Translations under genes and position numbers: made by a program | DNA from: Actinomycetota bacterium | GTDB taxonomy: Bacteria > Actinomycetota > UBA4738 > HRBIN12 | Direction of reading: 5' to 3' | Assembly: GCA_035288045.1 (NCBI GenBank) | Contig: DATEBA010000023.1 | Coordinates: forward strand, 3,356 to 67,355 | DNA length: 64,000 nucleotides | The notes under the pieces: model-generated | The model's database searches: none | Told to the model about the DNA's origin: nothing | Seen by the model: the letters and a program-made list of their open reading frames with translations, nothing else | In this document: positions 6,442 through 33,640 of the stretch, piece by piece | Position numbering within the stretch: the first letter of the stretch is position 1 | How the letters are laid out: each line of letters opens with the position of its first letter

Positions 6442-6491
6442 CTCACCCCGTTTATCGGCGGGGTGCGAGACCACCTTTACCCCCGTTCGCC

Positions 6492-8451: not shown

Positions 8452-9543
8452 ATGATCAGACTGCGGCAAGGCAGGGTCGTCGCCATCACCGCCGCGCGGC
8501 CCGGCGTCGTAGAGGTCAACGTCGAGGTGGACGGCGAGCGGGCCGCCGCGCTCGTCTACCCAGACCTCGTCGGCCCCGTCGCCGAGGGCGACGCGGTCGT
8601 CCTCAACACGACGGCCGTCGCTCTGGGCCTCGGTACGGGCGGGACCCATCTCGTGGTCGCGGTCGAGGGCGCCGAGGGCACAGACATCGCGCATGGGGGC
8701 CGCGTGATGAAGGCGCGCTACACCCCGCTCCAAGCGGTGGTGCGATCCGTCGAGGAGACCCACCGAGACGTGTTGGAGACCTCCTCGGGGCTGGAGGGGA
8801 CGCCGGTCGTCACCGCTCCTCTTCACTCGATGGTCGCGATGGTCGCCGCCGGTGCCAAGGCGGCCGGCGCCAAGCGGGTCGCCTACGCGATGACCGACGG
8901 GTCGGCGCTGCCGGGAGCCTTCTCCCGTCTCGTTCCCCGGCTTCGCGGCGCGGGGCTCCTGGACGGCTGGGTCACATGCGGGCAAGCCTTCGGCGGAGAG
9001 CTCGAGGCCGTGACCCTCTGGAGCGGCCTGCTGGCGGCCAAGGAGGTTCTCGCAGCGGATGTCGTGGTCGTGGCCGACGGTCCGGGGAACCTCGGGACGG
9101 ACACGAAATGGGGCGTATCGGCGCTCGCCGGTGGCCATGCCCTGAACGCGACCGAGACCCTAGGCGGGCGGCCGGTTGCCGCTCTCCGGGTGAGCTTCGC
9201 CGATCGCCGCGAGCGCCACTGGGGCTTGTCCCACCACTCCCTCACGATCCTCAAGGAGGTGGCGACGTGCCACGCGAACATTGCCGTTCCTCTGCTCGAG
9301 CGTGAGCAGCGGGAGGCGCTCTGGGACTCCCTCAGGGCGGCCAAGCTGGAGGACCGGCACCAGCTCGTGGAGGTGGTCGGCGCGCCGGCGCTCCAGGAGC
9401 TGGAGAGCCGCGGCGTCGAGATCGAGTCGATGGGCCGCCGGCCCGCCGACGACCCGGCGTTCTTCCTGGCGGCCGGTGCCGCGGGGGTGCTCGCCGGTCG
9501 GATGGCGGTCGGCTCGCGCGCGTACCGTGCGCCGGGTGCCTAG
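8452..9543 (+). CDS. DUF3866-like conserved hypothetical protein
   Basis: ORF 363 aa on the plus strand, inserted between pafB and pafA. Gly/Ala-rich soluble protein. No catalytic motif recognised. Confidence 0.5.
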   Translation: MIRLRQGRVVAITAARPGVVEVNVEVDGERAAALVYPDLVGPVAEGDAVVLNTTAVALGLGTGGTHLVVAVEGAEGTDIAHGGRVMKARYTPLQAVVRSVEETHRDVLETSSGLEGTPVVTAPLHSMVAMVAAGAKAAGAKRVAYAMTDGSALPGAFSRLVPRLRGAGLLDGWVTCGQAFGGELEAVTLWSGLLAAKEVLAADVVVVADGPGNLGTDTKWGVSALAGGHALNATETLGGRPVAALRVSFADRRERHWGLSHHSLTILKEVATCHANIAVPLLEREQREALWDSLRAAKLEDRHQLVEVVGAPALQELESRGVEIESMGRRPADDPAFFLAAGAAGVLAGRMAVGSRAYRAPGA

Positions 9544-10760: not shown

Positions 10761-12119
10761 TCACATGTGGGAGATGAGCTGTTCGACTCGTTCGTCGACC
10801 GACCTGAACGGGTCCTTGCAGAGCACGGTGCGCTGCGCCTGGTCGTTCAGCTTGAGGTGGACCCAGTCGACCGTGTAGTCGCGCCGCTTCTGCTTGGCCA
10901 TCTTGATGAAGTCCCCCCGGAGCTTCGCGCGCGTGGTCTGGGGCGGCTCGCGCATCGCGGCCGAGATCTGGGCCTCGGTGCAGACGCGCTCGCTCCTTCC
11001 CGCCCTCTCCATCAGGTAGTAGAGGCCGCGACTCCGGTTGACATCGTGGTACGCGAGATCGAGGAGCGCCACCTTGGGGCTCGAGAGCGGGATCGAGTGC
11101 TTCGTCCGATACCGCTCGATCATCGCTTGCTTGGTCACCCAGTCGACCTTGCCAACCAGCCGCTCCGGCCTCTCCTCTATCAGCGCGTCCAGCGCCTCCC
11201 GCCACTCCTCGAGCAGCTGTTTCGAGGTCGGATCGGTCCCATGATGCTCGAGGAACCGGGAGGTCTTGTCGAAATACTCCTCCTGGACGTCGATCGCTGT
11301 GAGCTCGCGTCCGTTCGCGAGCTTCACGCGCTTGCGGCAGGACACGTCGTGGGAGATCTCGCGGATCGCTCGGATTGGGTTCTCCAGGGTCAGATCGCGC
11401 ATCACCGTGTTCGCCTCGACCATCCGCAGGACGAGGTCGGTGATCCCGACCTTCATGAAGGCGGTCCACTCGTTCATGTTCGAGTCACCCACTATGACGT
11501 GGAGGCGGCGGAACCGTTCGGCGTCGGCGTGCGGTTCATCGCGGGTGTTGATGATCGGGCGCGACCGCGTCGTCGCGCTGGAAACACCCTCCCAGATGTG
11601 CTCGGCGCGCTGCGCTATGCAGTACTGTGCCCCGCGCGGCCCATGGAGCACCTTTCCCGCCCCGCAGTAGATCTGCCGAGTCACGAAGAACGGGATGAGG
11701 ACGTCGGCCATCCGAGCGAACTCGCCCTGGCGAGCCACGAGGTAGTTCTCGTGGCAGCCGTAGGAGTTCCCGGCCGAGTCGGTGTTGTTCTTGAACAGGT
11801 AGACCTGCCCGGAGATGCCCTCCTCGTGCAGGCGAACCTCCGCCGCCGAAAGGAGCGCCTCGAGGATCCGCTCCCCCGCCTTGTCGTGAGCTACCAGGTC
11901 GGCGATCGTGTCGCACTCCGGCGTCGCGTACTCGGGGTGAGAGCCGACGTCGAGGTACAGCCGGGCGCCGTTCTCGAGGAAGACGTTCGAGGAGCGGCCC
12001 CAGTGCACCACCCGGCGGAACAGGTACCGCGCGACCTCATCCGGGGAGAGCCGGCGCTGCCCGCGGAAGGTGCAGGTCACGCCGTACTCGTTCTCGAGAC
12101 CGAAGATGCGCCGGTCCAC
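10761..12119 (-). CDS. pafA: Pup--protein ligase PafA
   Basis: ORF 452 aa. [38 protein letters not shown] is near-identical in pattern to the mycobacterial PafA N-terminus. Carboxylate-amine ligase fold motifs are present. Confidence 0.9.
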
Positions 12120-12141
12120 GCAGGCCAGTCTAGGCCCGTGG

Positions 12142-12831
12142 CTACCCGTTGGAGAGGATGTTCGCTACCTCGGCGGCGTCGAGGCGGTGAAACTTGCGGC
12201 GGCCCTTCGCCGTGCGGTCGAGGATCCCAGCCTCGATCTGCGTAGCCTCGATCTGGCGGCTCTCGACCGTGGAGAGCGCCTTCACGGAGCTACCGACGGC
12301 CGTCGGCAGGTCCCATCCGGCCTCCCAGGCGCCCTTGAGCGCGTTGCCGAGATCCTCCGCCTTGCCTCCCATGGCGACGAAGTGGTCCTCGTCCGTGACG
12401 CTCCCGTCGAACAGGATGTGGTACATCGCGTTCCCCTCGGGCTCCTCGCCGATCTCGGCCACGAGGAGCTCCACCTCGTAGGGCTTCATCTGTTGCGTGA
12501 AGATCGTGGAGAGCGTCTGCGAGTACGCGTTCGCGAGGTCGCGCGCCTTCACGTCCTCGCGACCGTAGGAATAGCCGCGGAGGTCCGCGTGTCGCACGCC
12601 GGCGATCCGCAGATCCTCGAACTCGCTGTACTTGCCGACGCCGGCGAACGCGATCCGATCGTAGACCTCGGAGATCTTGTGAAGCGTGACGGAGGGGTTC
12701 TCCGCGACGAACAGGATCCCGTCGACGCACTCGACCGCAACGACCGACTTCCCTCGCGCTATGCCCTTGTGCGCGTAGTCGGAGCGGTCCTTCATGAGCT
12801 GCTCGGGCGGCACGTACGGCATGAAGGACAC
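12142..12831 (-). CDS. prcA: proteasome alpha subunit
   Basis: ORF 229 aa. [33 protein letters not shown]...[11 protein letters not shown] matches actinobacterial PrcA. Confidence 0.9.
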
Positions 12832-13631
12832 TAGGCCCGCCCCCCGAGGACGGCCTCGTAGGCCGTCTTCACCTCGTCCTCCGGCACCCCGCTCACGCCC
12901 TCGGAGGCGATCGCCAAGACCGTCGGGTAGATGCCGCGTGCCGCGTCTGGCCCGCCGGTCGCGACGTCCTCCTCGCTCGCGTCTACGAGCGCCTCGACGG
13001 CAACGCGGACCGCCTCGTCCGGCGCGAGGCCGGGACGCCAGCGCTTCTTGAGCGAGCTCTTCGCGGGCCGGCCACCCGAGCCGGTCGCGTGGTAGTCCTC
13101 CTCCTCCCAGCGACCGCCGGTGGCGTCGTAGTAGAAGAGGCGGCCTTCGGCCCGTCGCTCGTCGAACCCGCCGAAGAGCGGAACAACGACGAGTCCCTGC
13201 AGCGCCAGCGGGAAGTTCCCCCGGATCATCTGTGCGAGGCGATTCGCCTTTCCCTCCAAGGACAGGCGATCACCGGTGATCTTCTCGTAGTGCTCGAGCT
13301 CGAGCTGGAAGAGCTTGACGATCTCGACGGCCTGGCCGGCCGCCCCCGCTATCGCGATCGCCGAGTACTCGTCGGCCGCGAAGACCTTCTCGATCCGGTC
13401 GTCGGCTATCGAGTAGCCCTCGGTCGCGCGCCGGTCCCCAGCCATCACGACGCCGCCGCCGAACTTGAGCCCGAGCACGGTCGTGCCGTGGGCCGCCGGA
13501 ACCTCCCCCTCCGGCTGGCGCGGTACCGGCGCGGCCTCCGGCCGAACGGACATCACGAGATCGAAGAAGCTGGGGTTGGCACCGATCGGGCGGCCTGGGG
13601 GGAGGGGGGGCTCGGGGACGTCGCCCCTCAT
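12831..13631 (-). CDS. prcB: proteasome beta subunit (with propeptide)
   Basis: ORF 266 aa. Propeptide, then the HGTTVLGLKF active-site Thr1 context. GDRRATEG and GSGG motifs are present. Confidence 0.9.
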   Translation of the reverse strand: MRGDVPEPPLPPGRPIGANPSFFDLVMSVRPEAAPVPRQPEGEVPAAHGTTVLGLKFGGGVVMAGDRRATEGYSIADDRIEKVFAADEYSAIAIAGAAGQAVEIVKLFQLELEHYEKITGDRLSLEGKANRLAQMIRGNFPLALQGLVVVPLFGGFDERRAEGRLFYYDATGGRWEEEDYHATGSGGRPAKSSLKKRWRPGLAPDEAVRVAVEALVDASEEDVATGGPDAARGIYPTVLAIASEGVSGVPEDEVKTAYEAVLGGRA

Positions 13632-13834
13632 TCGCCGCCCTTCTGGACGTAGCTCTTCACGAACTCCTCGGCGTTCTCCTCGAGGACCGAATCGATCTCG
13701 TCGAGGATCTCGTCCATCTCCTCCTTCAGCTTCTCGCCCTTGGAGGTGGTCTGGACCTCGCCCGCGTCGCTCTCCGCGGCGCCTTCGCCGCCGCCCTTCT
13801 TCTGTGTCCGCTTCTGCTCCTGCTCCTGCGGCAT
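13628..13834 (-). CDS. pup: prokaryotic ubiquitin-like protein Pup (C-terminal GGE)
   Basis: Internal start M11 of ORF 13628..13864, with a GGAGG RBS 6 nt upstream. MPQEQEQKR...DEILDEIDSVLEENAEEFVKSYVQKGGE is the classic Pup pattern. Ends in GGE rather than GGQ. Confidence 0.85.
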   Translation of the reverse strand: MPQEQEQKRTQKKGGGEGAAESDAGEVQTTSKGEKLKEEMDEILDEIDSVLEENAEEFVKSYVQKGGE

Positions 13835-13908
13835 CTCGCTCCTCCCGCGGCCCCAGAGGCTCATTCTAGCGAGCCGTCCCCCTCACAGGGGACATCGGCT
13901 CGTCCGGC

Positions 13909-15393
13909 TCACTCCTGGAGCAGCCGGATCAGGTCCGCCGGGTCGCTCGCAGCCTCGAGGAGGCCCTCGACGTGTGCCCGCGTGCCCCGCAGGGGTTCCC
14001 GCATCGGCACACGCTGGAGTGCGTCCTCGCCCGTGTCGAATATGAGCGAATCCCAGGACGCCGCCGAGATCGCGTCGTGGAACTTCGCGATGCAGCGGCC
14101 GCGGAAGAACGCCCGCGTGTCCTCGGGCGGGCTCATCACGGCCGCCTCGACCTCGTCGTCCGTCACGAGCCGCTCCACCTTCCCAGCAGCCTCGAGACGG
14201 TAGTAGAGGCCCTTGTCACGCCGGACGTCGTGGTACTGGAGGTCGACGAGGCGGAGCTTGGGGTCGTTCCACTCGACGCCGTCGCGCTCCCGGTAGCCCT
14301 CCAGCAGCCGGTGCTTCGCGACCCAGTCGAGCTCGCGGTGGAGCGAGAGCGGGTCGTCCTCCAGCGCCGCGAGCGTCCGCTCCCATCGCTCGAGGACCAT
14401 CTGATTGTCCGGTGTGTCGTCCTGCTGCTCCACGTACTTCTTGGCGTGCTCGAGGTACTCCCACTGGACCTGGATCGCCGAAAGGCGTCGCCCGTCGGCG
14501 AGTGGCACCTCGACGGTACACGTAACGTCGCGCGAGATCTCGTGGAGCGCCGCGATCGCATTGGCGAGCGACAAGTCGGGCAGGAACTCGTCCTCGATCA
14601 TCTTGAGGACGAGCGCCGTCGAGCCGAGCTTCAGGTAGGTCGCGACCTCGCACATGTTGGCGTCGCCGATGATCACGTGGAGCCTCCGGTACTTGTCCGG
14701 ATCGGCGTGCGGCTCGTCGCGGGTGTTGACGATCGGTCGCTTGAGCGTGGTCTCCAGTCCGACCTCGGCCTCGAAGAAGTCCGCTCGCTGCGTGAGCTGG
14801 TAGAAGATCCGGCCGCGCTCGTCCCACGGCGCCTCCGCCCCGAGCTTCCCGGCGCCCGTGAACACCTGCCGCGACACGAGGAACGGCGTGAGATCGCGCA
14901 CTATCTGGCCGAACGGGGTCAGCCGGTCCATCAGGTAGTTCTCGTGCGTGCCGTACGAGTTCCCCTTGCCGTCGGAGTTATTCTTGTAGATCGCCAGGCG
15001 CTCCCCCGGTGGAAGGATCCGGTGGAGCTCGTCCAGCGAGCGCTCCAGCACGCGCTCCCCGGCCTTGTCGTGGATCACGAGCTCCCGCGCCGAGGAGCAC
15101 TCGGGCGTCGAGTACTCCGGGTGCGCGTGGTCGACGTAATAGCGCGCGCCGTTAGGGAGGATCACATTGGCGAGGCCGAGGTCCTCCTCGGATGGTTCGC
15201 GAACTTGTACCGGCTCGAAACCGCGGGCGTCCCGCAGCGGCGACTCCTGCTCGTAGTCCCAGCGGATCTTCCGCAGGGCGCCGGCGTACGTGCTGATGAG
15301 CAGCGAGGAGGAAAGCACCGGGTTGAACTCAGGCGACCCGACCGCCGCGATGCCGTACTCGGTCTCGGTGCCGATGACCTTCGGGATCCCCAT
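13909..15393 (-). CDS. dop: depupylase/deamidase Dop
   Basis: ORF 494 aa. VIGTETEYGIAA...YVDHAHPEYSTPEC...NTRDEPHAD...RRLHVIIGDANM is PafA-paralog architecture. Position between arc and pup is typical of Dop. Confidence 0.9.
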   Translation of the reverse strand: MGIPKVIGTETEYGIAAVGSPEFNPVLSSSLLISTYAGALRKIRWDYEQESPLRDARGFEPVQVREPSEEDLGLANVILPNGARYYVDHAHPEYSTPECSSARELVIHDKAGERVLERSLDELHRILPPGERLAIYKNNSDGKGNSYGTHENYLMDRLTPFGQIVRDLTPFLVSRQVFTGAGKLGAEAPWDERGRIFYQLTQRADFFEAEVGLETTLKRPIVNTRDEPHADPDKYRRLHVIIGDANMCEVATYLKLGSTALVLKMIEDEFLPDLSLANAIAALHEISRDVTCTVEVPLADGRRLSAIQVQWEYLEHAKKYVEQQDDTPDNQMVLERWERTLAALEDDPLSLHRELDWVAKHRLLEGYRERDGVEWNDPKLRLVDLQYHDVRRDKGLYYRLEAAGKVERLVTDDEVEAAVMSPPEDTRAFFRGRCIAKFHDAISAASWDSLIFDTGEDALQRVPMREPLRGTRAHVEGLLEAASDPADLIRLLQE

Positions 15394-15402
15394 GCCGGAA
15401 GG

Positions 15403-17151
15403 CTACAGGTACTGGCCGGCGTTGACGCGCTCGACCTGCCGCCCCTCCTCCCCGCCGTCGCCGAGGAGCGTCCGAACGTAGACGATTCGCTCGCCCTTCT
15501 TCCCGGAGATGCGGGCCCAGTCGTCCGGGTTCGTGGTGTTTGGCAGGTCCTCGTTCTCCTTGAACTCGCGGCGGATCGCCGTCAGGAGATCTTCTTGCTT
15601 GATGCCCTTCTCGCCGGTCGAGAGGAAGCGCTTTATCGCGTCCTTCTTGGCACGGCGGACGATGTTCTCGATCATCGCGCCGGAGTTGAAGTCCCTGAAG
15701 AACAGGATCTCCTTGTCGCCGGACGCGTACGTCACCTCGAGGAACCGATTCTCCTCGCTCTCCGCGTACATCTTTTCCACCGTGCGCTCGATCATCCTGC
15801 GGGTCGTGACGGCAACGTCGCCGCCTGCCCTGTCCACGTCATCCGGATGGATCGGCACCGATGGGTGCAGGTACTTCGACATGATGTCCGCGGCCTGGGG
15901 TCCGTCGGGTCGCTCGATCTTGATCTTCACGTCGAGACGGCCCGGCCGCAGGATCGCCGGGTCGATCAGGTCCTCGCGGTTGGAGGCGCCTATCACGATC
16001 ACGTTCTTCAGCGTCTCGACGCCGTCGAGCTCGGAGAGCAGCTGCGGGACGATCGTGCTCTCGACGTCGGACGAGATGCCGGTCCCGCGCGTGCGGAATA
16101 TCGAATCCATCTCGTCGAAAAAGACGATCACCGGGAGACCTTCCTCCGACCGCTCCTTCGCGCGCTGGAAGATCTGCCGGATCTGCCGCTCGGTCTCCCC
16201 GACGTACTTGTTGAGGAGCTCCGGGCCCTTGATGTTGAGGAAGTACGAGTGCGCGTCCTGCCGTCCGGTCCGCTCCTTCACCTTGTCCGCCAGCGATTTC
16301 GCGACGGCCTTCGCGATCAGCGTTTTGCCGCAACCAGGCGGGCCGTACAGGAGCACGCCCTTGGGCGGCTCGAGCTCGTGCTCGTGGAAGAGCTCCGCGT
16401 ACAGGAACGGCAGCTCGACGGCATCACGTATCTGCTCGATCTGACCCTCGAGGCCGCCGATGTCCTCGTAGGAGATGTCGGGAACCTCCTCCAGGACGAG
16501 CTCCTCCATCTCCTCCTTCGGGAGCTTCTCCAGCGCCACTCCCGAGCGCGGGTCGAGCAGGAGCGCGTCCCCGGCGCGAACGCTCTCATCACGCAGTTTC
16601 TTGGAGAGGATGGCTACAAGCTCCTCGTCGGCCCGGCCGAACACGATCACGCGATCGTCGCCTAGGCTCTCCTTCACCTTCACGACCTCGCCCTGGCGGT
16701 CGGGGTCCAGCGCCTCGACGACGTTCAGGGCCTCGTTCAAGACGACCTCCGTGCCCTTCGCGAGGCGCTCGACGTCGATCTCGGGCGCCACGTTCACGCG
16801 CATCTTCCGGCCGGAGGTGAAAACATCTACCGAGTCGTCATCGTTGCGACGGAGGAAGACGCCGAACGACGCCGGCGGCTTGCTCAGCTTCTCGACCTCG
16901 TCCTTGAGCGCCTCGATCTTGTCCCGCTCGGACCTGAGCGTCGCGACCAGCTTCTCGTTCTGCGACAGCGCGCGCGAGAGATCGGACTTGGTCTCGAGGA
17001 GCTTCTCCTCTAGGAGCTTCACCTGTCGAGGCGCGCTCGTGAGGCGTCGGCGAAGCAGCGCGACCTCGTCCTCGAGGAACTTGACCTGGGTCTGGAGCTC
17101 GTGGATCTGTTTCTCGTAAGCCTCACGCCGCTCGGGGTCGAGCTCCGGCAT
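15403..17151 (-). CDS. arc: proteasome-associated AAA ATPase ARC/Mpa
   Basis: ORF 582 aa. N-terminal coiled coil. GPPGCGKT Walker A, DEMD Walker B, C-terminal GQYL proteasome-docking motif. Confidence 0.9.
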
Positions 17152-17280: not shown

Positions 17281-18063
17281 TCAGCTATCGCCCCGCCGAG
17301 CCACCGTCAGGAACCCCGTATGCCCTACCATGCGGTGGTCCGGGCGTACGCTCCGACCGGAGACGTGCCAGCTACGGTGGAGCGTCTCGAACGTTTCGAC
17401 GTGGCGGAAACCGTTTTCCTCGAGGGCGAGAACGAGGGCCTGGACCTGGACCGTGGTCGGCAGGTAAGTACACAGCACCCCTCCCGGCTCCAGGACTGCC
17501 GCGGCGACCTCTAGGAGCCTCCACGGCTCGGGAAGGTCGAGTACGAGCCGGTCGAAGCGCTCGCCGGTGCCGGCGATCTCGTTCACATCGCCCTCGCGGA
17601 GGTCGAGCCACGCCGGGAGCTTGCCATGGAACTGCTCGATGTTGGCGATCGCGCGCTCGCGGTGCTCCGGGCGGATCTCGTAGGAGACCACTCGGCCCTC
17701 CGGGCCCGTCGCCCGGCAGAGCGCGATCGTGAGCGAGCCGGACCCGGTCCCGGCTTCGAGCACCCGCGCTCCCGGGAAGACGTCGGCCTCCACGAGTATC
17801 GCGCCGAGGTCCTTCGGGTAGACGACCTGAGCCCCCCGGGGCATCTTCAGGACGAAGTCGGACAGACGAGGTCGGTAGGCGACGAGCGCCATCCCGCCGC
17901 TGGTCTCGACTGTCGTTCCCTCCCCCCGTCCGATGAGCGCGCCGTGCGCAAGCGCGCCCCCGTGGGTGTGGAACGTCCCGCCGGACTGGAGCCGTACGAG
18001 GTACGTCCGACCGCGCCCGTCCACGAGGAGCGCGCGTTCACCGGGCTCGAAGGGCGCGCTCAC
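17281..18063 (-). CDS. trmI: tRNA (adenine58-N1)-methyltransferase TrmI
   Basis: GTG start at 18063, internal to ORF 17281..18219, overlapping the upstream gene's stop as GTGA. SAM-dependent methyltransferase motifs (VLEAGTGSGSLT, DLPEPW) are typical of TrmI/Gcd14. Confidence 0.75.
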   Translation of the reverse strand: MSAPFEPGERALLVDGRGRTYLVRLQSGGTFHTHGGALAHGALIGRGEGTTVETSGGMALVAYRPRLSDFVLKMPRGAQVVYPKDLGAILVEADVFPGARVLEAGTGSGSLTIALCRATGPEGRVVSYEIRPEHRERAIANIEQFHGKLPAWLDLREGDVNEIAGTGERFDRLVLDLPEPWRLLEVAAAVLEPGGVLCTYLPTTVQVQALVLALEENGFRHVETFETLHRSWHVSGRSVRPDHRMVGHTGFLTVARRGDS

Positions 18064-19241
18064 GGCATCGCGCCCCCGTAGATCTCCGCCGGGAGGACCT
18101 CCTCCGACAGCTCGACGGCCACCTCGCGGTCGGCGGGAGGCGGGCCCAGCCGCTCGCCGAGGATCTGCGCGCGCGCGCGACAGAACGCGCAGAACCGTCC
18201 GGTCGTCGGCTGGCCGCACCGCTCACACTCGCGCAGCTCGGCCCTCTCCTCGCTCCGGAACAAGGGGGCTCCGCGATCCAGGTAGCCCAGGAAGAACTGC
18301 GCCTTCGTTCCCGGGGACCCCGCCTCGAGCCCGTTCATGGCCCCCTTGTAGCGCAGCTGCGTGTTGCCCGCCACGAGCGGGCACTCCTCCACGACGTAGT
18401 CGATCCGTCGCAGGAACGCGTAGGCGGCCGTCTCGAGCTCCGAGAGACGGTGGAGCGGCTTCACCTTCCTGACCATCCCCTCCGCGGCCGGCAGAACCGG
18501 GAACTGCCGCGCGATGTACTCGGTCTGCCAACGGAGGGTGTTGCCGAGCAATGTCGCGGCTTCGTCGTCCAGGTTGTGGCCCGTAGCGACCACGTCGAAG
18601 CCGTGCTCGAGCGCCGCGCGGTTGAACACGTACCGCTTGGAGAGCCCGCACACGGCGCACGTCGAGCGCGAGCCCCTCCGCCCCGCCGTCGGCACGTCGA
18701 ACCCGTAGGCCTGCGCCAGGTCGACCTCGAGCAGGGTCGCGCGCCGGTCCTCGGCGAACCGCCTCGCGACCTCGGCCGACCCGTGTGAGTACTGCCCGAT
18801 CCCGAGGCCGAGGTAAAGGCCGGTCACCCGGTAGCCGAGGTTGAGCAGCACGTCCCAGAGCCCGAGCGAGTCCTTGCCCCCCGACACGGCGACGAGAACG
18901 CGATCCTCCGGCCCGAACATGGCGTAGGCCTTGATCGCCCTCTTCACCTGCTCGCGGACGTGATGCAGGAAGCAGCCACGGCAGAAGGCCGCGTTGTGGC
19001 GGCGGATCTCGACCACCGCGGCACCGCCGCACCGCCTGCACTTGATCGCGCCGCCGGAGATCACCGGACGGATCTCGACGAGATCGCCCTCCGTCACGTG
19101 GTCCTCGCGCATCAGCAGCTCGCGGTCTCGGATCACCAGCACCGTGTCCGGATCGAGGTCGAGCTCGCGGAGGATGTCGCGGACCTTGCGATTGCCGGAG
19201 GTCTCCACCTCGCGGTCGGGGTTGCGCAGCTTGACCTTCAC
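18060..19241 (-). CDS. ttuA: tRNA 2-thiolation protein TtuA-like (PP-loop ATPase with N- and C-terminal zinc fingers) with an N-terminal ThiS/MoaD-like beta-grasp domain ending in GG
   Basis: ORF 393 aa. Residues 1-64 MKVKLRNPDREVETSGNRKVRDILRELDL...GDLVEIRPVISGG have the ThiS/MoaD sulfur-carrier signature and terminal Gly-Gly. They are followed directly by CRRCGG...FCRGC, the VLVAVSGGKDSLGLWDVL PP-loop, CAVCGLSKR, VVATGHNLDDEAA and the C-terminal RECERCGQPTTGRFCAFCR. The TtuA part closely parallels the sequence I recall for Thermus TtuA. Confidence 0.75.
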   Translation of the reverse strand: MKVKLRNPDREVETSGNRKVRDILRELDLDPDTVLVIRDRELLMREDHVTEGDLVEIRPVISGGAIKCRRCGGAAVVEIRRHNAAFCRGCFLHHVREQVKRAIKAYAMFGPEDRVLVAVSGGKDSLGLWDVLLNLGYRVTGLYLGLGIGQYSHGSAEVARRFAEDRRATLLEVDLAQAYGFDVPTAGRRGSRSTCAVCGLSKRYVFNRAALEHGFDVVATGHNLDDEAATLLGNTLRWQTEYIARQFPVLPAAEGMVRKVKPLHRLSELETAAYAFLRRIDYVVEECPLVAGNTQLRYKGAMNGLEAGSPGTKAQFFLGYLDRGAPLFRSEERAELRECERCGQPTTGRFCAFCRARAQILGERLGPPPADREVAVELSEEVLPAEIYGGAMP

Positions 19242-19278: not shown

Positions 19279-20382
19279 CTAGCGGGTCGGGTCCGGGTTC
19301 ACTCCGAGGGTCACGCCGACGGTCTTCTCACCGTTCAGACCGTCGACTCGAACCTCGACCTCCTCCCCGGGAGACCGGCTGCGGATCAGGTCCCCGAGCT
19401 CCTCCGACGACGCCACATCGTGCCCGTCGAAGCCCAGGACGACATCGCCTTGCTCGATCCCAGCTTCGGCTGCCGGGCCGTCCGGCGCCACGGCCACGAC
19501 GAAGGCACCCTCGCTCACCGGCAGCCCGTACTGGATCGCGAGAGGCGAGTCCACGGTTCGCGAGATGACCCCCAGGTAGGCGACCGCCGCCTCGGGGTTC
19601 TCGATGGCGTGCTCGATCGTGGGCTTGGCGGCGTCGATCGAGATCGCGAAACCGATGTTCTCCGCGAACCCGGCACCGATGCCTGCGGTGTTGATGCCGA
19701 CGACCTGCCCCGCCAGGTTCACGAGGGGCCCGCCGGAGTTCCCCGGGTTTATCGCGGCGTCGGTCTGGATCACGTGGGAGTACTCGCGCTGGCCCCCGAG
19801 GCAGACGTCCTGGGCACAGTTCGGGTCCTGAGCCTTGATCACCCTGTCCATCGACGAGACGATGCCGGTCGTCACGCTGGGGCCACCCTCAAGAGCTAGC
19901 GCGTACCCGATCGCAACGACCTGCTGCCCGAGCTCGAGGGCGTCCGAGCTGCCGAGCGACACGGTGGGCAGACCCGCGTCGTCGATCTTCAACACCGCCA
20001 GATCGGCCGCCTGATCCCCGCCGATCACCCGGGCGTCGTACTCCTCGGGTTCCTGTCCGGAGGTGATGACTCGGATCCGCTGGGCGCGCTCCACGACGTG
20101 GTAGTTCGTCACCACGACCCCGTCGGGGCGGACTATGAATCCGGTGCCGGTCCCTTGACCCGTGTCCCCGAAGGGGTCGAGCTGGTCGGTCGTCACGTTG
20201 ACGACCGCCGGGAGCACGCGCCTGACCACCTGCACCACCGGCCCGCCGCGCACCTTCGAGATGAGGGCGGGAGAAGCCTGCTCCGGACTCGCTTCGGCCC
20301 GCACCTGCGACGGCGGCTCGGTCGTGCACGCCGCGACCAGCAGCCCTAGCGCGAGCGCCGGAGCCAGGATCTTGCCGGTCAT
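19279..20382 (-). CDS. HtrA/DegP-family serine protease with PDZ domain, lipoprotein signal
   Basis: ORF 367 aa. Signal plus lipobox LVAAC. Trypsin-like fold with GNSGGPL active-site Ser. C-terminal PDZ. Confidence 0.85.
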   Translation of the reverse strand: MTGKILAPALALGLLVAACTTEPPSQVRAEASPEQASPALISKVRGGPVVQVVRRVLPAVVNVTTDQLDPFGDTGQGTGTGFIVRPDGVVVTNYHVVERAQRIRVITSGQEPEEYDARVIGGDQAADLAVLKIDDAGLPTVSLGSSDALELGQQVVAIGYALALEGGPSVTTGIVSSMDRVIKAQDPNCAQDVCLGGQREYSHVIQTDAAINPGNSGGPLVNLAGQVVGINTAGIGAGFAENIGFAISIDAAKPTIEHAIENPEAAVAYLGVISRTVDSPLAIQYGLPVSEGAFVVAVAPDGPAAEAGIEQGDVVLGFDGHDVASSEELGDLIRSRSPGEEVEVRVDGLNGEKTVGVTLGVNPDPTR

Positions 20383-20460: not shown

Positions 20461-21630
20461 TCAGGCGGAGAGCGCCGCGGCGGGGACCTTCTTGCTCGGG
20501 TCCACGAAGGGAAGCGCGGCAGTCTTTCCCGCGGTCCGCTCCCCTCCCCGCCAGAGGATCTCGACCTCGATCCCCGGATCGGCGAGCTCGATCGGAACCC
20601 AGACGTACCCGATGTTCTTCTCCAGGCGAGGCGACCAGATCAGGTCCGTCACGTAGCCGACCTCCCGGCCGTCGTGGAGCGCGGGCCGGACCTCCGAGAT
20701 CTCGAAGTCGAGCGCCTCGCCCGGAACCTCGATTCCGACGAGCTTCTTCGTCACGCCCTCGTTGCGGATCCTCGCGAGGGCGGCCTTGCCGATGTAGTCG
20801 GCTTGCTGCTCCTCGACGAGTCGTTCGAGGCCCATCACCTCGAACGGGTTGTTGCGGATGGTCATGTCCGAGCCGTAGTTGAAGATGCCCGCTTCGATCC
20901 GGCGGGCCTCAACCGGCGCGATCGGGCGGATCTGGTAGGGCTCCCCCGCCTGCATGATCCTGTCCCACATCTCGCTCCCACGCGTCGGGTCCATCAGGTA
21001 GATCTCGAACCCGACCTCGCCAGTCCAGCCCGTCCGGCTGACCACGACCGGGATGTCGTCGAGCCGCGTCTGCATCGTCCAGTAGTACTTGATCTCAAGG
21101 ACCCCGTCACCGAACAGGTCGCGCAGCACGTCCTTGGACTTCGGCCCCTGCACCTGCACCGGGTAGACGTCCGGCTCGTCGACGCGGACGTCCAGCCCCG
21201 AGTTGACCGCGACGCCACGCGCGTAGAGGCCGGCGTCGCTGTCGGCCAGAGCCAGCCAGTACCGGTTCTCCTCCAGGCGGAGAAGAACGGGGTCGTTCAC
21301 GATCCCGCCGTCCTCCGCCATGATCAACGCGTACTTGCCCTGGCCGACCGCGCACTTGTCGAGGTCCCGGCAGGTCAGCATGTTCGTGAACCGGTGGGCG
21401 TCGGAACCTGTGATCTCGACGATCCGCTCGACCGAGACGTCCCAGAGCGTCACTTGCTCGAGGAGGTGCCAGTACTCCTTCACCGGGTCGTCGTAGTAGC
21501 CCGGCAGGTACATGTGGTTGTAGATGTCGTATGCCTTGCACCCGGCCTCGAGCGTCTTCTCAAAGAACGGCGACTTCCTGTACCAGGGGCCGAAATAGAG
21601 CGTGGTCGACGTGTTGCCGAACTCGGTCAT
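20461..21630 (-). CDS. GcvT-family (aminomethyltransferase-like) THF-dependent methyltransferase/demethylase, paralog 1
   Basis: ORF 389 aa with GcvT N- and C-domain patterns. Paralogous to 23115..24269 (LWDVSVER..., VVVSRTGWTGEVG..., PFVDP). Confidence 0.7.
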   Translation of the reverse strand: MTEFGNTSTTLYFGPWYRKSPFFEKTLEAGCKAYDIYNHMYLPGYYDDPVKEYWHLLEQVTLWDVSVERIVEITGSDAHRFTNMLTCRDLDKCAVGQGKYALIMAEDGGIVNDPVLLRLEENRYWLALADSDAGLYARGVAVNSGLDVRVDEPDVYPVQVQGPKSKDVLRDLFGDGVLEIKYYWTMQTRLDDIPVVVSRTGWTGEVGFEIYLMDPTRGSEMWDRIMQAGEPYQIRPIAPVEARRIEAGIFNYGSDMTIRNNPFEVMGLERLVEEQQADYIGKAALARIRNEGVTKKLVGIEVPGEALDFEISEVRPALHDGREVGYVTDLIWSPRLEKNIGYVWVPIELADPGIEVEILWRGGERTAGKTAALPFVDPSKKVPAAALSA

Positions 21631-21712
21631 GCTGGTGCCCTCCCTGTCCGAACCCCGGGCTCTCCACCCGCGCTGATTGAATCTTCAGTCAAGCCGGCCC
21701 TCCCGTGCAAGT

Positions 21713-22669
21713 TCAGGCGGAAGTGGGCACGGCCACCTCGGGGCGCGGGAGGAGGCCCGCTTCCTCGATGAGCGCCAGGATGTCTTCGCGACCTCCGATG
21801 GACATGAGGTGGACCCCCGAGACCCCGGGTAGCTCCCTGGCCCCGTGGAGGACCTCGAGGGCGATCCTCCTACCCTCCTCCGCCTGGCGTTCGGCCGGCG
21901 TTCCCTCCATGCGCTCGATCACCCAGTCCGGGACATCGATACCGGGTACCTGATCGCGGAGGTACCGTGCTCCCCTTAGGGAACGGGGGATGAAGATGCC
22001 GACGAGCACGAACACTCGGTCGAGCGCTCCGAGCTCGCCGGCGCGAGCCATGAACTCGCGGAGCTTGGACACGTTGAAGCAGATCTGGGTCTGGATGAAC
22101 TGGGCGCCCGCCTCCACCTTCTTCTGGAGACGGATCGGGCGGAAATCGAGCGGAGGCGCGAACGGGTTCTCGACCGCGCCGATGAAGAATCGCGGAGACT
22201 CCGTGAGCCGGCGCCCGGATAGGTAGGTCCCGTCGTCGCGCAAGATCCGAGCGATCCGAATCAGGTGGAGCGAATCGAGGTCGTAGATCGCCTTTGCCTC
22301 TGGGTGGTCGCCGGCGGACACGTCGTCGCCGGTCATGAGCATCACGTTCCGCACCCCGAGCGCGGCCGTGCCGAGCAAGTCCGCCTGAAGTCCGAGGCGG
22401 TTCCGGTCGCGGCAGGTGAACTGCGCGATCGGCTCGATGCCGCGATCGACGAGCAGGTGCGCGGCCGCGACCTGCGAGATGTGGGGGTGAGCGGCGCTGT
22501 TGTCGGTGCAGTTCACGGCGTCGACCTTGCCCCGCAAGGGATCCGCGACGGCGTGGACCGACTCGGGATCAGCGCCGTCGGTCGTCTCGAGCTCGCAGGT
22601 GACGGCGAAGTGCCCGCCCCTGAGCAGCGCTTCCAGTCGACTCGCCGGTGGGCGTCCGGTCTGGCTCAT
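21713..22669 (-). CDS. metF: 5,10-methylenetetrahydrofolate reductase (MetF family)
   Basis: Internal start M140 of ORF 21713..23086, in an ATGA overlap with the upstream gene. HFAVTCELETTDGAD...FTCRDRN...LLGTAALGVRNVMLMTGD is the MTHFR TIM-barrel pattern. Confidence 0.75.
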   Translation of the reverse strand: MSQTGRPPASRLEALLRGGHFAVTCELETTDGADPESVHAVADPLRGKVDAVNCTDNSAAHPHISQVAAAHLLVDRGIEPIAQFTCRDRNRLGLQADLLGTAALGVRNVMLMTGDDVSAGDHPEAKAIYDLDSLHLIRIARILRDDGTYLSGRRLTESPRFFIGAVENPFAPPLDFRPIRLQKKVEAGAQFIQTQICFNVSKLREFMARAGELGALDRVFVLVGIFIPRSLRGARYLRDQVPGIDVPDWVIERMEGTPAERQAEEGRRIALEVLHGARELPGVSGVHLMSIGGREDILALIEEAGLLPRPEVAVPTSA

Positions 22670-23046
22670 TCGCGCTTCACTTGCTCGTCGGCCCATCCTG
22701 CCGGCACCAGCTTGTCCCGCCGGGTGAGTAGGTTCACCCAGGACGAGGTGCCCTCCAGCTGCCAATCCACCGGCGGGTTCAGGTGCTCCATATGGTCCCG
22801 CCAGAGCGGAAGCTTCCGAGAGCGCTCCCAGGCAACCACCCAGGTGCACATGCGGTCGGGTTCCACCTCGCAGTTGCCGTTCTGCAAGACGCCGCCGCAG
22901 GGACCGTTGCGGAGGTTCTTCGGGCAGGTCATTGGGCATCGGAGCCCCGTGGAGTGCAGGATGCACTGGCCGCACATCCGGCAGTCCCAGAGCGGCTCCT
23001 TCGTGACCTTCTCCACGAGGAGGATCGCTCGCGTGCCGAGCCCCAT
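22666..23046 (-). CDS. MTHFR C-terminal-domain (MetV-like) Cys-rich zinc-ribbon protein
   Basis: Internal start M138 of ORF 22666..23457. CRMCGQCILHSTGLRCPMTCPKNLRNGPCGG...NCEVEPDRMCTW gives a multi-Cys pattern, as in the stand-alone MTHFR_C partner of MetF. Confidence 0.6.
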   Translation of the reverse strand: MGLGTRAILLVEKVTKEPLWDCRMCGQCILHSTGLRCPMTCPKNLRNGPCGGVLQNGNCEVEPDRMCTWVVAWERSRKLPLWRDHMEHLNPPVDWQLEGTSSWVNLLTRRDKLVPAGWADEQVKRE

Positions 23047-23114
23047 CTTCGGGCGCCCCCTCGCATTGGCCGTCTCCACCTGCCACCTCCCGTGGGGATC
23101 TCCCCGCCCCTCGA

Positions 23115-24269
23115 CTAGGAGACGGGGATCTGCTTGTTCGGGTCGACGAACGGCATCTCGACCACGGTCGCAGTCCGCGTGCCCCACTCGCTCTCCACGA
23201 TCACCCTCGTGCCGAGCTCGGACCGAGCCGTCGGCAGCCAGGCGAAGCCGATGTTCTTCTCCAGACGCGGCGAGTAGATCGCGGAGGTCACCTTTCCGAT
23301 CTTCGCCCCATCCTCGACCACCGGCCACTTCACGTAGTTGAGCGCGGGGAACGGGGCGCCGTCGAGCTCGACCCCGTTGATCCTGCGGGTCACGCCCCGC
23401 TCCTTGATCCGTCGGAGCGCCTTGAGGGAGATGCTCGCGTCGTCCGGCACGTCCCAATCGACCAGGCGCTCCAACCCCATCTCGAGCGGATCGTTCTCGT
23501 AGGTCATGTCTGCGCCCCAGTTGAAGATCGCGCCCTCGATCCGCCTGATGTCCGAGGGGCCGGTCGGTTTGATGTTGAACTCCTCGCCGGCCTTCATGAT
23601 GGCCTCGTAGACCTCCGCGCCCCGAGACGCATCGATCGTGTAGACCTCGTAGCCAACCTCGGAGGTCCAGCCCGTCCGCGTCACGACCACCGGCACGCCT
23701 GCGATCTCCGCGTGCGTCCAGAAGTAGTACTTGAGGTCCAGGATGCTCTCGCCGAGGAGCTTCACCATCAGGTCCTTGGACTTCGGGCCCTGGACCTGGA
23801 GCGGCGCCACGTCGGCCTCGCGGATCGTGACATCGAGATCTGGGTATGCGTTCTTCAACCCGCGCGCGAACAGAAGGGCGTCGGACGACGCCAGTGCGAA
23901 CCAGAACGTGTTCTCGTCCATCCTAGTGAGGACGGGGTCGTTGATGATCCCGCCGTCGCTGTCGACGATGAGGACGTACTTGGCCTGGCCCACTGCGCAC
24001 TTCGACAGGTCCCGCGGGGTGAGGAGCTGGGCGAACGTGAAACCGTCGGGGCCGCCGATCTCCAGGCACCGCTCGACCGCGACGTCCCAGAGCGTCACGT
24101 CGTTCAGCAGAGCCTCGAACTCCGCCTCGAATGAGTCGAAGCGGATCGGGAAGTACATGTGGTTGTAGACCGTGAACCCCTTCGGCCCGTACTTCTGCGT
24201 GGCCTCGTGGTACGGCGTGCGGCGGCCCCGCGCCCCACGCTGCACCAGGCTCATGTCGAACTCGGGCAT
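23115..24269 (-). CDS. GcvT-family THF-dependent methyltransferase/demethylase, paralog 2
   Basis: ORF 384 aa. Same domain pattern as 20461..21630. Confidence 0.7.
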   Translation of the reverse strand: MPEFDMSLVQRGARGRRTPYHEATQKYGPKGFTVYNHMYFPIRFDSFEAEFEALLNDVTLWDVAVERCLEIGGPDGFTFAQLLTPRDLSKCAVGQAKYVLIVDSDGGIINDPVLTRMDENTFWFALASSDALLFARGLKNAYPDLDVTIREADVAPLQVQGPKSKDLMVKLLGESILDLKYYFWTHAEIAGVPVVVTRTGWTSEVGYEVYTIDASRGAEVYEAIMKAGEEFNIKPTGPSDIRRIEGAIFNWGADMTYENDPLEMGLERLVDWDVPDDASISLKALRRIKERGVTRRINGVELDGAPFPALNYVKWPVVEDGAKIGKVTSAIYSPRLEKNIGFAWLPTARSELGTRVIVESEWGTRTATVVEMPFVDPNKQIPVS

Positions 24270-24401
24270 GCCCTCCTCCTCGATGTCTCGGGCTACGGAG
24301 AGACCGAGGGCGCCTGCGGCCCTGCCTCCGCGCCCTTCCGGGTCGTCGGCGTATCGTGCGAGCCCCGCCCCCCCGCAGCAACACCGCGCGTTGACCCCTG
24401 G

Positions 24402-25355
24402 TCAGGAGGCCGCCCCGCCGGAGTCGTTGGCCTGCGGCGGAGGGAAGATGCGCCCCTCCAGGTAGCCGCGGCCGACGATGGCCATGAACAGGTGAACCTC
24501 GTCCTCGTTCCAGGCGAAGGGCCCTTGCCGGGCGCCACGCGAGGCTAGCCCTCGCTGGACCGACTCGCACGCGGCCCAGTCCTCCCTGTTCGTCACGTCC
24601 CAGAACTCGCTCGCGTAGGAGGGGTCGAAGTCCGCGAGCTCCGTAACCTCCGGCGGAAAGAGCCAGGAGCACTCCACCCACGTCTTTCCCGGGGTGAGCG
24701 GATCCATGCGGTGCGTCATCACGTAGTCCGGGTGCAGGCTGATCAGCAGGTTAGGGAACAGCCCGTAGTAGTAGACCTCGCGGCGTTGCTTCTCGTCCAG
24801 GCCGCGGATCGGCACGCCCCCGCCCCTGCCGGTGAACGACATGGTCTCGGCGAAGTCCATGAGCTCCATGTTCCCACCGACCCAGCATCCGTTGTGGGGG
24901 AAGTTCTCACCACTGTCCACCGGCGTCACCTTGCACAGGGCCGGATGGATGCTCGGGCAGTGGTAGCACTCGTGGTAGTTCTCCGTAATCGTCTTCCAGT
25001 TAGCGTTCACGACGTATTCGTGCTTCGCCGCTACGAAGAGACGCTCGGGCTCCCACGGCGCGACGAGCTCATCGAGGTTCCCCACGTGCTCCTCGAAGGG
25101 GAGCGCATAGCCGGAGGCATCGGCGAACGCCCACCCGTGCCACTCGCGAACGACCCCGGGGCCCGAGAGTTCCTCCGCCCGACCGAGGCACACCCAGGAC
25201 CCCTCGAAGAAGTGGGAGCGTTCCCAGGCGAGAACCTCCTCTGACAGGTAGGCCTCCGGTGGCAGGGTCCGGCTCGCGCCCAGAGTGGACCTGAGCGCGG
25301 TCCGAATGGCCTGCGCGTCGACGGGTGCGATGGGTTCGACGGCTGCCCGGCTCAT
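24402..25355 (-). CDS. ring-hydroxylating oxygenase alpha-subunit homolog lacking the Rieske [2Fe-2S] domain
   Basis: ORF 317 aa. N-terminal LAWERSHFFEGSWVCLGRAEEL and the catalytic-domain motif NWKTITENYHECYHCPSIHP (mononuclear Fe His pair) are present. Only a relic (REWHGWAF) of the second Rieske box is present, and no CxH box. Confidence 0.55.
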   Translation of the reverse strand: MSRAAVEPIAPVDAQAIRTALRSTLGASRTLPPEAYLSEEVLAWERSHFFEGSWVCLGRAEELSGPGVVREWHGWAFADASGYALPFEEHVGNLDELVAPWEPERLFVAAKHEYVVNANWKTITENYHECYHCPSIHPALCKVTPVDSGENFPHNGCWVGGNMELMDFAETMSFTGRGGGVPIRGLDEKQRREVYYYGLFPNLLISLHPDYVMTHRMDPLTPGKTWVECSWLFPPEVTELADFDPSYASEFWDVTNREDWAACESVQRGLASRGARQGPFAWNEDEVHLFMAIVGRGYLEGRIFPPPQANDSGGAAS

Positions 25356-25491
25356 TCCGATCGTCCTCCGAGGGTGACCGCGGGTTTGAACGCCCGTTCA
25401 AGTGCTGCCAGAGTCTAGCATTACTGCCAGGCCGAGGAGGAAGCACAGTGCCCCGGACCGGCGGTCATCACAGACGCGACCCCGGGTCACA

Positions 25492-27153: not shown

Positions 27154-27283
27154 CGTCACCTCCGTCGCCGGACTCGGGTGAGGATAACCGACCCAGGCAT
27201 CGGACCTTCGGCCACCCCCGGTACCCGATCCTTGGTAGTGCGATCCGGTATCCCCCGGATGACGCGAACGGGCTCTACGCCGA

Positions 27284-31190: not shown

Positions 31191-31377
31191 GTTGCTCGTG
31201 TCGGAGGGCGATCCGAACCCTGTGCACACGCATCCTGAGAGGGGAACTCTTGGTGCTCCGATAGCTCACGCCTTCCACGAAGAAAGGGAGCCCACTGAAG
31301 TGGGCTCCCCTCCCTGACCGGCCGCGCTTATGCAGCGCACGGGCACGGTCGGCGAACTACCGGACGGTCTTTGTCTG

Positions 31378-32221: not shown

Positions 32222-32307
<86 letters not shown>

Positions 32308-32345
32308 GGCGCAGCACGGGATTCTACCAAGGGGGCTCGCGGACC

Positions 32346-32579: not shown

Positions 32580-32594
32580 GATGGGCTCCGGTCT

Positions 32595-33640
<1,046 letters not shown>

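Follow-up and report, generated by a model that had tools for sequence, protein, structure and literature searches.

A ubiquitin-like sulfur carrier encoded in one chain with its tRNA thiolase: a TtuB-TtuA fusion with an internal diglycine in uncultured Actinomycetota

The window analysed here is a stretch of 64,000 nucleotides (nt) of contig DATEBA010000023.1 (assembly GCA_035288045.1, positions 3,356 to 67,355) from an uncultured actinobacterium. On its minus strand it encodes ttuBA, a single open reading frame (ORF) in which the ubiquitin-like sulfur carrier TtuB is followed in frame by the tRNA 2-thiouridine synthetase TtuA. The TtuA/TtuB pair is the bacterial model for a ubiquitin-like thiocarboxylate that hands sulfur to an iron-sulfur enzyme, and it has so far been studied only as separately encoded proteins, with a carrier that ends in a free Gly-Gly (GG). 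The features of the ORF are given below, each with the basis of its assignment.

18060..19241, minus strand: ttuBA fusion ORF, 393 amino acids (aa), GTG start and TGA stop (Pfam, NCBIfam and PDB matches)
19050..19241, minus strand: TtuB domain (ThiS/MoaD-type beta-grasp sulfur carrier), residues 1-64, ending in ISGG (Pfam, 5ZTB_E, Foldseek)
19050..19055, minus strand: Gly63-Gly64, the C-terminus of free TtuB, with a predicted cleavage site after G64 (RP[VI]ISGG conservation)
19044..19049, minus strand: two-residue linker Ala65-Ile66 (junction alignment and DNA)
18174..19043, minus strand: TtuA module (tRNA 2-thiouridine synthetase of the PP-loop / [4Fe-4S] type), residues 67-356 (5B4E, NCBIfam, Foldseek)
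18972..19040, minus strand: N-terminal zinc finger C68xxC71...C87xxC90 (Pfam TtuA_LIM_N; invariant in the alignment)
18867..18884, minus strand: PP-loop S120GGKDS125 for ATP binding and uridine adenylation (Pfam, motif; invariant in the alignment)
18630..18659, minus strand: [4Fe-4S] ligands C195 and C198, and K202 (aligned to T. thermophilus C130/C133/K137; invariant)
18381..18383, minus strand: C287, the third [4Fe-4S] ligand, equivalent to T. thermophilus C222 (alignment; invariant)
18180..18227, minus strand: C-terminal zinc finger C339xxC342...C351xxC354, reading C339ERC342...C351AFC354 (alignment; invariant)
18078..18107, minus strand: motif SEEVLPAEIY, residues 379-388 (tail alignment of 120 homologues)

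The GC content at third codon positions (GC3) of the ORF is 0.93, which is of the coding type seen in real genes of this ~68% GC sequence. Residues 9-64 match the ThiS family PF02597 with 24.6 bits in the whole protein and 28.7 bits in the isolated N-terminus (Pfam gathering score 22.5 bits), and the match reaches the last profile column at Gly64. In a PDB sequence search, residues 2-64 align end to end with Thermus thermophilus TtuB (5ZTB_E, E=3.7e-13), with a gapless core and with both sequences ending in ISGG. The AlphaFold2 model superimposes on the same chain with a template modelling (TM) score of 0.90 and a root-mean-square deviation of 1.8 A over 65 residues (Foldseek), and the order of strands and helices in the modelled N-terminal domain fits a beta-grasp.

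The remainder of the chain is TtuA. Residues 67-356 align with residues 2-291 of T. thermophilus TtuA (5B4E/5GHA, E=6e-92, 311 bits), while the PDB match to NcsA reaches only 85 bits. The module lacks an initiator Met and is otherwise whole, its residue 67 being residue 2 of Thermus TtuA. Pfam detects TtuA_LIM_N at 67-92 (36.9 bits, cut-off 27) and the PP-loop family PF01171 at 115-286 (31.7 bits, cut-off 27), and the best NCBIfam model is a TtuA equivalog over residues 66-356, with a ThiS model covering 2-64. The AlphaFold2 model of the fusion has a mean predicted local distance difference test score (pLDDT) of 70.6 and TM scores of 0.77-0.81 to TtuA chains, and its top Foldseek matches are all TtuA.

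The invariance of the TtuA motif residues was judged in an alignment of 36 homologues. The protein has exactly 11 cysteines and each of them can be assigned, namely four to the first zinc finger, three to the cluster and four to the second zinc finger. From their alignment with Thermus C130, C133 and C222, C195, C198 and C287 are the predicted holders of a [4Fe-4S] cluster with one free iron. K202 aligns with Thermus Lys137, which has been implicated in the desulfurization of TtuB-COSH (PMC7138817). The C-terminal tail (residues 357-393) is variable, with pLDDT values below 50 and predicted disorder for 372-393, except for a motif [SA][DE]EV[LM]P[AV]E[ILV]Y that is kept in essentially all fused homologues after a spacer of variable length. 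This motif looks like a docking peptide for a partner.

A first-pass annotation, made from the letters of the window alone, had described an in-frame TtuB-type carrier joined to a complete cognate TtuA, had named its zinc fingers and its SGGKDS, CAVC and CERC...CAFC motifs, and had suggested a domain search of the ORF. The ThiS family PF02597 and the TtuA/PP-loop families were both found, every named motif was located (the CAVC as C195AVC198), and coordinates, Pfam, PDB and structural model all agree. We regard a genuine TtuB-TtuA fusion as practically certain.

To place the fusion among its relatives, a word-indexed search of 5.8 billion proteins was performed and its 120 top clusters were analysed. 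Additionally, one genome per GTDB species was scanned; 412 encode a relative, and the best 80 of these 412 were taken with their flanks. All 120 clusters are fused, with lengths of 386-422 aa and 97-100% of the query covered. They derive from JGI, ENA, NCBI and Logan assemblies, are assigned to uncultured Actinomycetota wherever a taxon is given, and carry source names such as ‘ATP-binding protein’, ‘MoaD/ThiS family protein’ and ‘tRNA-5-methyluridine54 2-sulfurtransferase’. The junction DNA of the 80 genomes, all from uncultured Actinomycetota species, shows 41 fused genes and 39 pairs of separate ttuB and ttuA. In the split genomes the two genes lie in different frames, with the ttuB stop overlapping the ttuA start as ATGA or GTGA.

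The junction between the modules falls exactly at the GG, which in the primary product is internal (residues 63-64 of 393) and not a free C-terminus. All 120 homologues have RP[VI]ISGG, as do the 80 related loci in either state and the more distant fused representatives. When the N-termini of the 120 homologues are aligned, an invariant E[IV]RPVISGG is followed by a variable stretch and then by an invariant [KR]C[RK]RC; the distance from GG to the first zinc-finger Cys is 3-14 residues, hypervariable in both length and sequence. RPVISGG is also kept, with other linkers, in distant fused representatives that share ~50% identity with the query across the junction region (125 residues). At least eight fused 50%-identity clusters occur among the best 150 in the representative library, where matches are mostly fragments and this number indicates a rough extent only. 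GG is followed by A, S or G in 40 of the 41 fused and 34 of the 39 split genes.

A GG at the very end of the carrier is also absent from the split genomes. Each of the 39 separate TtuB proteins has 1-10 residues beyond GG, for example AR, AP, GR, ARP, AQESDRERR or ARGRGEGAGP before the stop codon, and stand-alone TtuB relatives in the 50%-identity representative library are likewise tailed (RP, SR, ATR, DGGRR, AGEHAG). Split tails of 8-10 residues occur in relatives (L036, L050, L061, L074 and L078, which have unusually long post-GG segments), and one fused gene (L030:10001-11227) has a 24-residue, Arg/Gly-rich linker without Met. A tolerated extension is therefore not confined to a few residues.

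The junctions also record how the two states are connected. They differ in type, with GG-A-[I/M]-[KR]-C in the group of the window and GG-x(2-8)-NRM-[KR]-C elsewhere. The fused linker ‘..NRM[KR]C’ matches the ‘V[SN]RM[KR]C’ N-terminus of split TtuA proteins that start at the GTG of a GTGA overlap (L032, L039, L041-43, L077), and the A-I-K-C of the window corresponds to the ‘GG-AR-stop/ATGAAGTGC’ type minus two bases, with the Met codon changed to ATC. Ile66 thus occupies the place of the relic TtuA start Met of relatives. As the window linker has neither a Met nor a GGAGG, TtuA can be translated here only as a fusion. Read from the junction DNA, fusion is a 1-2-nt event at the stop/start overlap.

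Fused and split states interleave on a tree of the TtuA part, and parsimony requires at least eight state changes, a count that is approximate on this neighbour-joining tree without support values. The nearest neighbour of the window is L066, a metagenome-assembled genome (MAG) from a hot spring, and it is split. A single origin of the fusion was rejected on the interleaved states together with the differing junction types, and the distinct junctions also indicate several independent fusion or fission events. The TtuB domain appears equally constrained in both states, with no relaxation after fusion: the relative divergence of TtuB to TtuA is 1.22 for fused-fused pairs and 1.34 for split-split pairs, and the TtuB positions conserved at ≥ 90% are nearly identical, with two positions differing and with RPVISGG in both sets. 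A loss of carrier function on fusion would be expected to show as decay of the beta-grasp domain in the fused lineages, and no such decay is seen. On these comparisons both modules are shown to be complete and under purifying selection.

Several representatives (P0125, P0197, P0257 and others) join the C-terminal ends of upstream genes (HtrA/Trypsin, DinB_2, HATPase_c) to TtuB or TtuBA; these are most likely gene-calling or frameshift chimeras on short contigs.

In the described system, TtuB acts via a thiocarboxylate on its free C-terminal Gly, which is formed through an acyl-adenylate by the E1-like TtuC (PMC6225789). In the crystal structure, the unique Fe of the [4Fe-4S] cluster in TtuA has the C-terminal carboxylate or thiocarboxylate of TtuB as a ligand, and TtuB gives up its sulfur only once the tRNA is adenylated (PMC7138817). 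This chemistry requires a free TtuB C-terminus, and a peptide-bonded Gly64 therefore cannot perform these steps. The first-pass annotation had argued that an internal GG could not be thiocarboxylated and that the carrier might be released by proteolysis after GG. The solved complex, in which the free C-terminus is an iron ligand, bears out the former (PMC7138817), and the latter is favoured by the invariant GG, the hypervariable linker, the tails of split TtuB and the equal constraint on TtuB. Taking the conservation pattern and the known systems together, we consider it probable that TtuB is cleaved after GG and then works canonically.

Under this proposal, TtuB and TtuA would be made 1:1 as one 43-kDa chain, and a trans-acting peptidase encoded elsewhere in the genome would cut it after Gly64. 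The foremost candidate would be a JAMM/MPN+ metalloprotease of the Mec+/DRJAMM/HvJAMM1 type, although we assign the processing enzyme to the JAMM class only tentatively. The same peptidase would trim the 1-10-residue tails of separate TtuB in the sister lineages. A TtuC/MoeZ-type E1, working with a cysteine desulfurase, would adenylate the released TtuB-GG and convert it to the thiocarboxylate TtuB-COSH. Once docked on TtuA, TtuB-COSH would become a ligand to the free iron of the [4Fe-4S] cluster. Sulfur would then pass to the ATP-activated C2 of U54 or 5-methyluridine 54 ((m5)U54) in the tRNA T-loop. The overlapping gene downstream encodes TrmI, which would make 1-methyladenosine 58 (m1A58) and so promote the thiolation of U54. 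A small indel that joins the overlapping ttuB and ttuA frames would cost nothing, as TtuB would be processed anyway. If TtuB is always processed, fused and split forms would therefore be expected to interconvert repeatedly and apparently neutrally. Trimming of a pro-TtuB would explain the invariant GG, the unconstrained residues that follow it, the equal selection and the recurrent fusion and fission.

The closest solved homologues of both modules are those of the T. thermophilus TtuA/TtuB system, which works with TtuC and TtuD and produces 2-thioribothymidine 54 (s2T54; structures 5B4E, 5GHA and 5ZTB). The zinc fingers, the PP-loop, the three cluster cysteines, the Lys137 equivalent and the carrier ISGG are common to both. 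In Thermus, an extreme thermophile, the proteins are separate and the solved TtuB chain 5ZTB_E ends at GG, whereas the uncultured actinobacterium has one chain with an internal GG, from a gene coupled to trmI. C-terminally extended carriers are familiar from other pathways: QbsE is trimmed by QbsD and HcyS-Ala by HcyD, and eukaryotic ubiquitin is made as polyubiquitin and as fusions to ribosomal proteins. In all of these, GG is exposed only after a specific hydrolase has removed what follows, and the ubiquitin-ribosomal protein fusions likewise co-produce a tag and a translation-related partner at 1:1. However, QbsE and HcyS serve other pathways, and the fused partner of ubiquitin is not the enzyme that uses the tag.

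A closer parallel in architecture is MoaX, the MoaD-MoaE fusion of Mycobacterium tuberculosis, in which an actinobacterial carrier is also N-terminal to its enzyme with GG at the junction. MoaX is cut between Gly82 and Ser83 by an unidentified protease, and a G81A variant is uncut and inactive (PMC4326299). It differs from TtuBA in belonging to the molybdopterin pathway, in having an acceptor without an Fe-S cluster, and in being restricted to the M. tuberculosis complex, whereas TtuBA spans many species and toggles with a split form. For other carrier fusions the protease is known. HvJAMM1 of Haloferax cuts a linear SAMP1-MoaE fusion exactly after GG, a cut needed for activity in vivo (PMC4443979), and DRJAMM of Deinococcus cuts and activates the natural MoaD-MoaE fusion DR2607 (PMC8832034). 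Both fusions are inactive until a JAMM/MPN+ enzyme cuts after GG, which is the mechanism proposed here for TtuBA, but no such protease was found linked to ttuBA in the window and flanks. In Actinobacteria, linkage of JAB/JAMM genes to ThiS/MoaD-like carriers is widespread (PMC1779556).

Fusion of a beta-grasp carrier to a functional partner is a recurrent theme, and catalogued cases comprise ThiS-ThiG, MoaD-MoaE, ThiS-sulfite reductase, MoaD-aldehyde oxidoreductase, Ubl-E1 and Ubl-Cgi121 (PMC1779556; PMC2948915). ThiS-family genes also adjoin tRNA-modifying PP-loop ATPases in archaea, as neighbours only (PMC2948915). Neither of these two comparative surveys of prokaryotic ubiquitin-like proteins (PMC1779556, PMC2948915) lists a ThiS/TtuB fusion to a TtuA/Ncs6-type PP-loop enzyme, and no TtuB-TtuA fusion or tailed TtuB was reported in the literature searched, a coverage that is incomplete and no proof of absence. 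The architecture is implicit in domain databases, where PF02597, PF22082 and PF01171 are assigned to some clusters. For the first-pass annotation, a common and already-described arrangement in related genomes would have counted against its reading. With all top clusters and about half of the related species genomes fused, the idea of a rare oddity is not supported, but no paper describing the fusion was found. We therefore see a further case of the known carrier-enzyme theme, in a system where it was previously unnoted, with the clade-wide pro-TtuB and the recurrent fusion as additions.

If, throughout this large uncultured actinobacterial clade, the carrier starts out as a precursor with either a tail or its own enzyme attached, an extra maturation step before tRNA 2-thiolation, and hence a protease, is implied. 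The fusion would offer a simple read-out for it, as the 43-kDa chain should yield fragments of ~7 and ~36 kDa. For specialists this mechanism is predictable from the work on MoaX and JAMM enzymes, and the surprise is moderate. The recurrent fusion and fission at a 4-nt stop/start overlap also show, in a clear-cut natural case, how fusion proteins arise from overlapping genes.

Several points weigh against cleavage and canonical use of the carrier on tRNA position 54. No JAMM/MPN+ protease, ThiF-type E1, rhodanese or cysteine desulfurase was found in the 64-kb window by a six-frame motif scan and Pfam analysis of nearly all predicted genes, and no JAMM protease or ThiF-type E1 was found by motif scan alone in 1.33 Mb flanking the gene in the 80 related genomes. 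In vitro, TtuA accepts free sulfide, and there are organisms with a TtuA but no TtuB (PMC7138817); the carrier is therefore not strictly needed for thiolation. The overlap of the two genes could by itself account for part of the tails on split TtuB, and the event counts that speak for free interconversion come from a tree without support values. Finally, the NCBIfam model NF049949 (Pyrococcus-type TtuA) gives 262.5 bits and does not reach its 450-bit equivalog cut-off, with other models far below it (NcsA 111, TtcA 69). The target position U54 is therefore drawn from the closest homologue and the trmI linkage.

In the search for the JAMM protease and the E1 that the first-pass annotation had suggested, motif-scan matches proved spurious, such as one in GAPDH at 42695. 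Distant representatives with N-terminal extensions included no Rosetta-stone fusion to a protease or E1 and proved to be the chimeric gene calls described above. The gene 37 nt upstream of ttuBA on the same strand (19279-20382, minus strand) encodes a PDZ-containing, HtrA-like serine protease and is conserved there in 73 of the 80 loci. This protease was rejected as the processing enzyme, as its lipoprotein signal peptide (lipobox LVAAC) should place the active domain outside the cytoplasm.

The missing protease and E1 in the window and scanned flanks leave room for a fusion that is never cleaved. The [4Fe-4S] cluster of TtuA would then accept sulfur directly from sulfide or a persulfide. The tethered beta-grasp domain would have a role other than that of a carrier; for example, it could stabilise or shield the oxygen-sensitive cluster, dock a partner, or permanently imitate the TtuB-conjugated (regulated) state of TtuA. 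In line with such roles, TtuB binding stabilises the cluster (PMC7138817), and TtuB is conjugated to TtuA and TtuC in Thermus (PMC11323500). We nevertheless find an uncleaved fusion unlikely. GG and the whole of RPVISGG do not vary, in contrast to the hypervariable stretch that follows, and fused TtuB is under as much constraint as TtuB from a separate gene, with nearly the same conserved positions. Free interconversion of the fused and split forms would hardly be expected had fusion altered function. Moreover, the linker to Cys68 has two residues, and from the inferred geometry a peptide-bonded Gly64 could not offer the iron-ligating carboxylate.

The genes downstream of ttuBA bear both on the target position and on the remaining alternatives.

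17281..18063, minus strand: trmI, tRNA m1A58 methyltransferase (Pfam GCD14 and TrmI-like_N)
10761-17151, downstream of trmI: mpa, dop, pup, prcB, prcA and pafA (Pfam)

The GTG start of trmI overlaps the ttuBA stop by 4 nt (GTGA at 18060-18063), so that trmI and ttuBA are probably co-translated, and the identical overlap is present in the independent gene calls of L081. In 78 of the 80 loci, trmI is the next gene downstream and has the same orientation. The modification m1A58 is a documented positive determinant for the 2-thiolation of m5U54 by the Ttu system (PMC7912444). Judged by gene order, ttuBA and trmI would form a coherent T-loop modification operon, which is the best available argument for action at position 54; we infer 2-thiolation of U54, and not of U34 or C32, from the trmI coupling and the m1A58 dependence of s2T54. 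The operon would extend the Thermus m1A58-to-s2T54 circuit to organisms that, from record names, are apparently soil-derived and presumably mesophilic: by their isolate and record names, many of the related MAGs appear to come from soil. The only RNA gene found in the window is a tRNA-Leu(GAG) at 32221-32307 (minus strand), whose T-loop GTTCAAATC has U54, C56 and A58, which are reported determinants of the reactions of Ttu and TrmI (PMC7912444).

The order htrA-ttuBA-trmI-mpa-dop-pup-prcB-prcA-pafA is conserved, with mpa in 73 and dop in 64 of the 80 loci. The first-pass annotation had placed the fusion directly beside the Pup-proteasome cluster and had seen meaning in a ubiquitin-fold carrier next to a ubiquitin-like tagging machinery. 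The neighbourhood holds, but ‘directly’ does not, as trmI lies between, and a meaningful link to the Pup system finds no backing, as the overlap and co-orientation with trmI and the role of m1A58 (PMC7912444) suffice to account for the position. The adjacency looks like hitch-hiking of the carrier on trmI rather than a functional link. In M. tuberculosis H37Rv, trmI (Rv2118c) is presumably also near mpa (Rv2115c), with no ttuA there, and the linkage between trmI and the proteasome genes would therefore predate ttuBA.

TtuB maturation might also be an obligatory, regulated gate on thiolation, operated by the Pup-proteasome machinery or by an unrecognised GG-specific peptidase instead of a housekeeping JAMM enzyme. 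This would tie T-loop thiolation to proteostasis signals and provide a bacterial counterpart of ubiquitin-precursor processing, but we give it a slim chance. Very improbable, too, is that the Pup-proteasome machinery itself processes or controls the TtuB-TtuA precursor and so couples two ubiquitin-like systems. The conserved gene order speaks for it, but ttuBA is coupled to trmI through the 4-nt overlap and not to mpa, which is separated by a 129-nt gap, and the presumed M. tuberculosis arrangement has trmI near mpa without ttuA. Furthermore, the target of Dop and PafA is the C-terminal Glu/Gln of Pup, at its side-chain carboxylate, and not a Gly-Xaa peptide bond, and the fusion contains no Pup, Dop/PafA, Mpa or 20S-type domain and no Pup-type disordered GGQ/GGE tag (Pfam, NCBIfam).

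Autoproteolysis of the kind known from pyruvoyl enzymes and SEA domains, with an acyl shift (N-to-O or N-to-S) at the Gly-Xaa bond, would remove the need for a peptidase. A Ser follows GG in 14 of the 41 fused genes, and MoaX is cut at Gly-Ser by an activity that is unidentified (PMC4326299). However, 25 of the 41, including the window, have an Ala at this position, which has no nucleophile, and the linker is hypervariable. As MoaX is moreover misprocessed in E. coli, which points to a host factor (PMC4326299), self-cleavage seems highly improbable.

The single ORF might instead reflect a stop codon lost, or an indel introduced, during sequencing or assembly, or TtuA might be produced on its own from an internal start. 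Such readings draw on the 1-2-nt difference between split and fused junctions, on an in-frame Met just before the first zinc-finger Cys in 35 of the 39 fused junctions scored and on the frameshifted ttuB of the nanopore locus L051, but their probability is negligible. The GG-A-I-[KR]-C junction is seen again in P0001 (99% identity) and P0002 (85% identity), which come from independent contigs. None of the 120 top clusters is split, Illumina assemblies (MEGAHIT, SPAdes) as well as nanopore ones contain both states, and the window linker offers neither Met nor GGAGG. The sequencing frameshift for which the first-pass annotation had allowed can thus be set aside. In L051 (9800-10010, a nanopore-derived MAG), two frameshifts lie inside ttuB besides the stop/start overlap; they are probably homopolymer errors and advise caution when the state is read from single long-read assemblies. 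The split state is real in 38 genomes besides L051.

Further genes of the window were annotated on both sides of the locus. Beyond pafA lie pafB/pafC-like WYL regulators, followed by tatA/tatC. A DUF3866 protein (8452-9543, plus strand) is divergent beside pafA and has the same position in L081, and is a conserved companion of the Pup locus. Upstream of ttuBA, the stretch 20461-27423 (minus strand) encodes two paralogous GcvT-like aminomethyltransferases, an MTHFR-like protein, the alpha subunit of a Rieske-type ring-hydroxylating oxygenase and a large amidohydrolase; this cluster, part of which is also in L081, resembles a tetrahydrofolate-dependent demethylation pathway.

ORFs without a Pfam match at E ≤ 1e-4 are those at 3945-4682 (minus), 45681-47447 (minus), 51704-52120 (plus) and 6088-6708 (minus), and the ORF at 31330-32850 (plus) has no Pfam match at E ≤ 1e-3. 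Given their coding-type GC3, 3945-4682 and 45681-47447 are probably real genes; the latter encodes 588 aa and sits between uvrC and uvrA. The regions 38542-45697 and 47383-55932 (minus strand) contain housekeeping genes, namely those for a phosphoglycerate mutase-like protein, tpiA, pgk, gap, a rapZ-like gene, uvrC, uvrA, uvrB, coaE and rpsA (S1), and the 3' end of polA follows coaE and rpsA at the edge of the window. This housekeeping synteny is typical of Actinomycetota and is consistent with a chromosomal, non-mobile location of the fusion gene.

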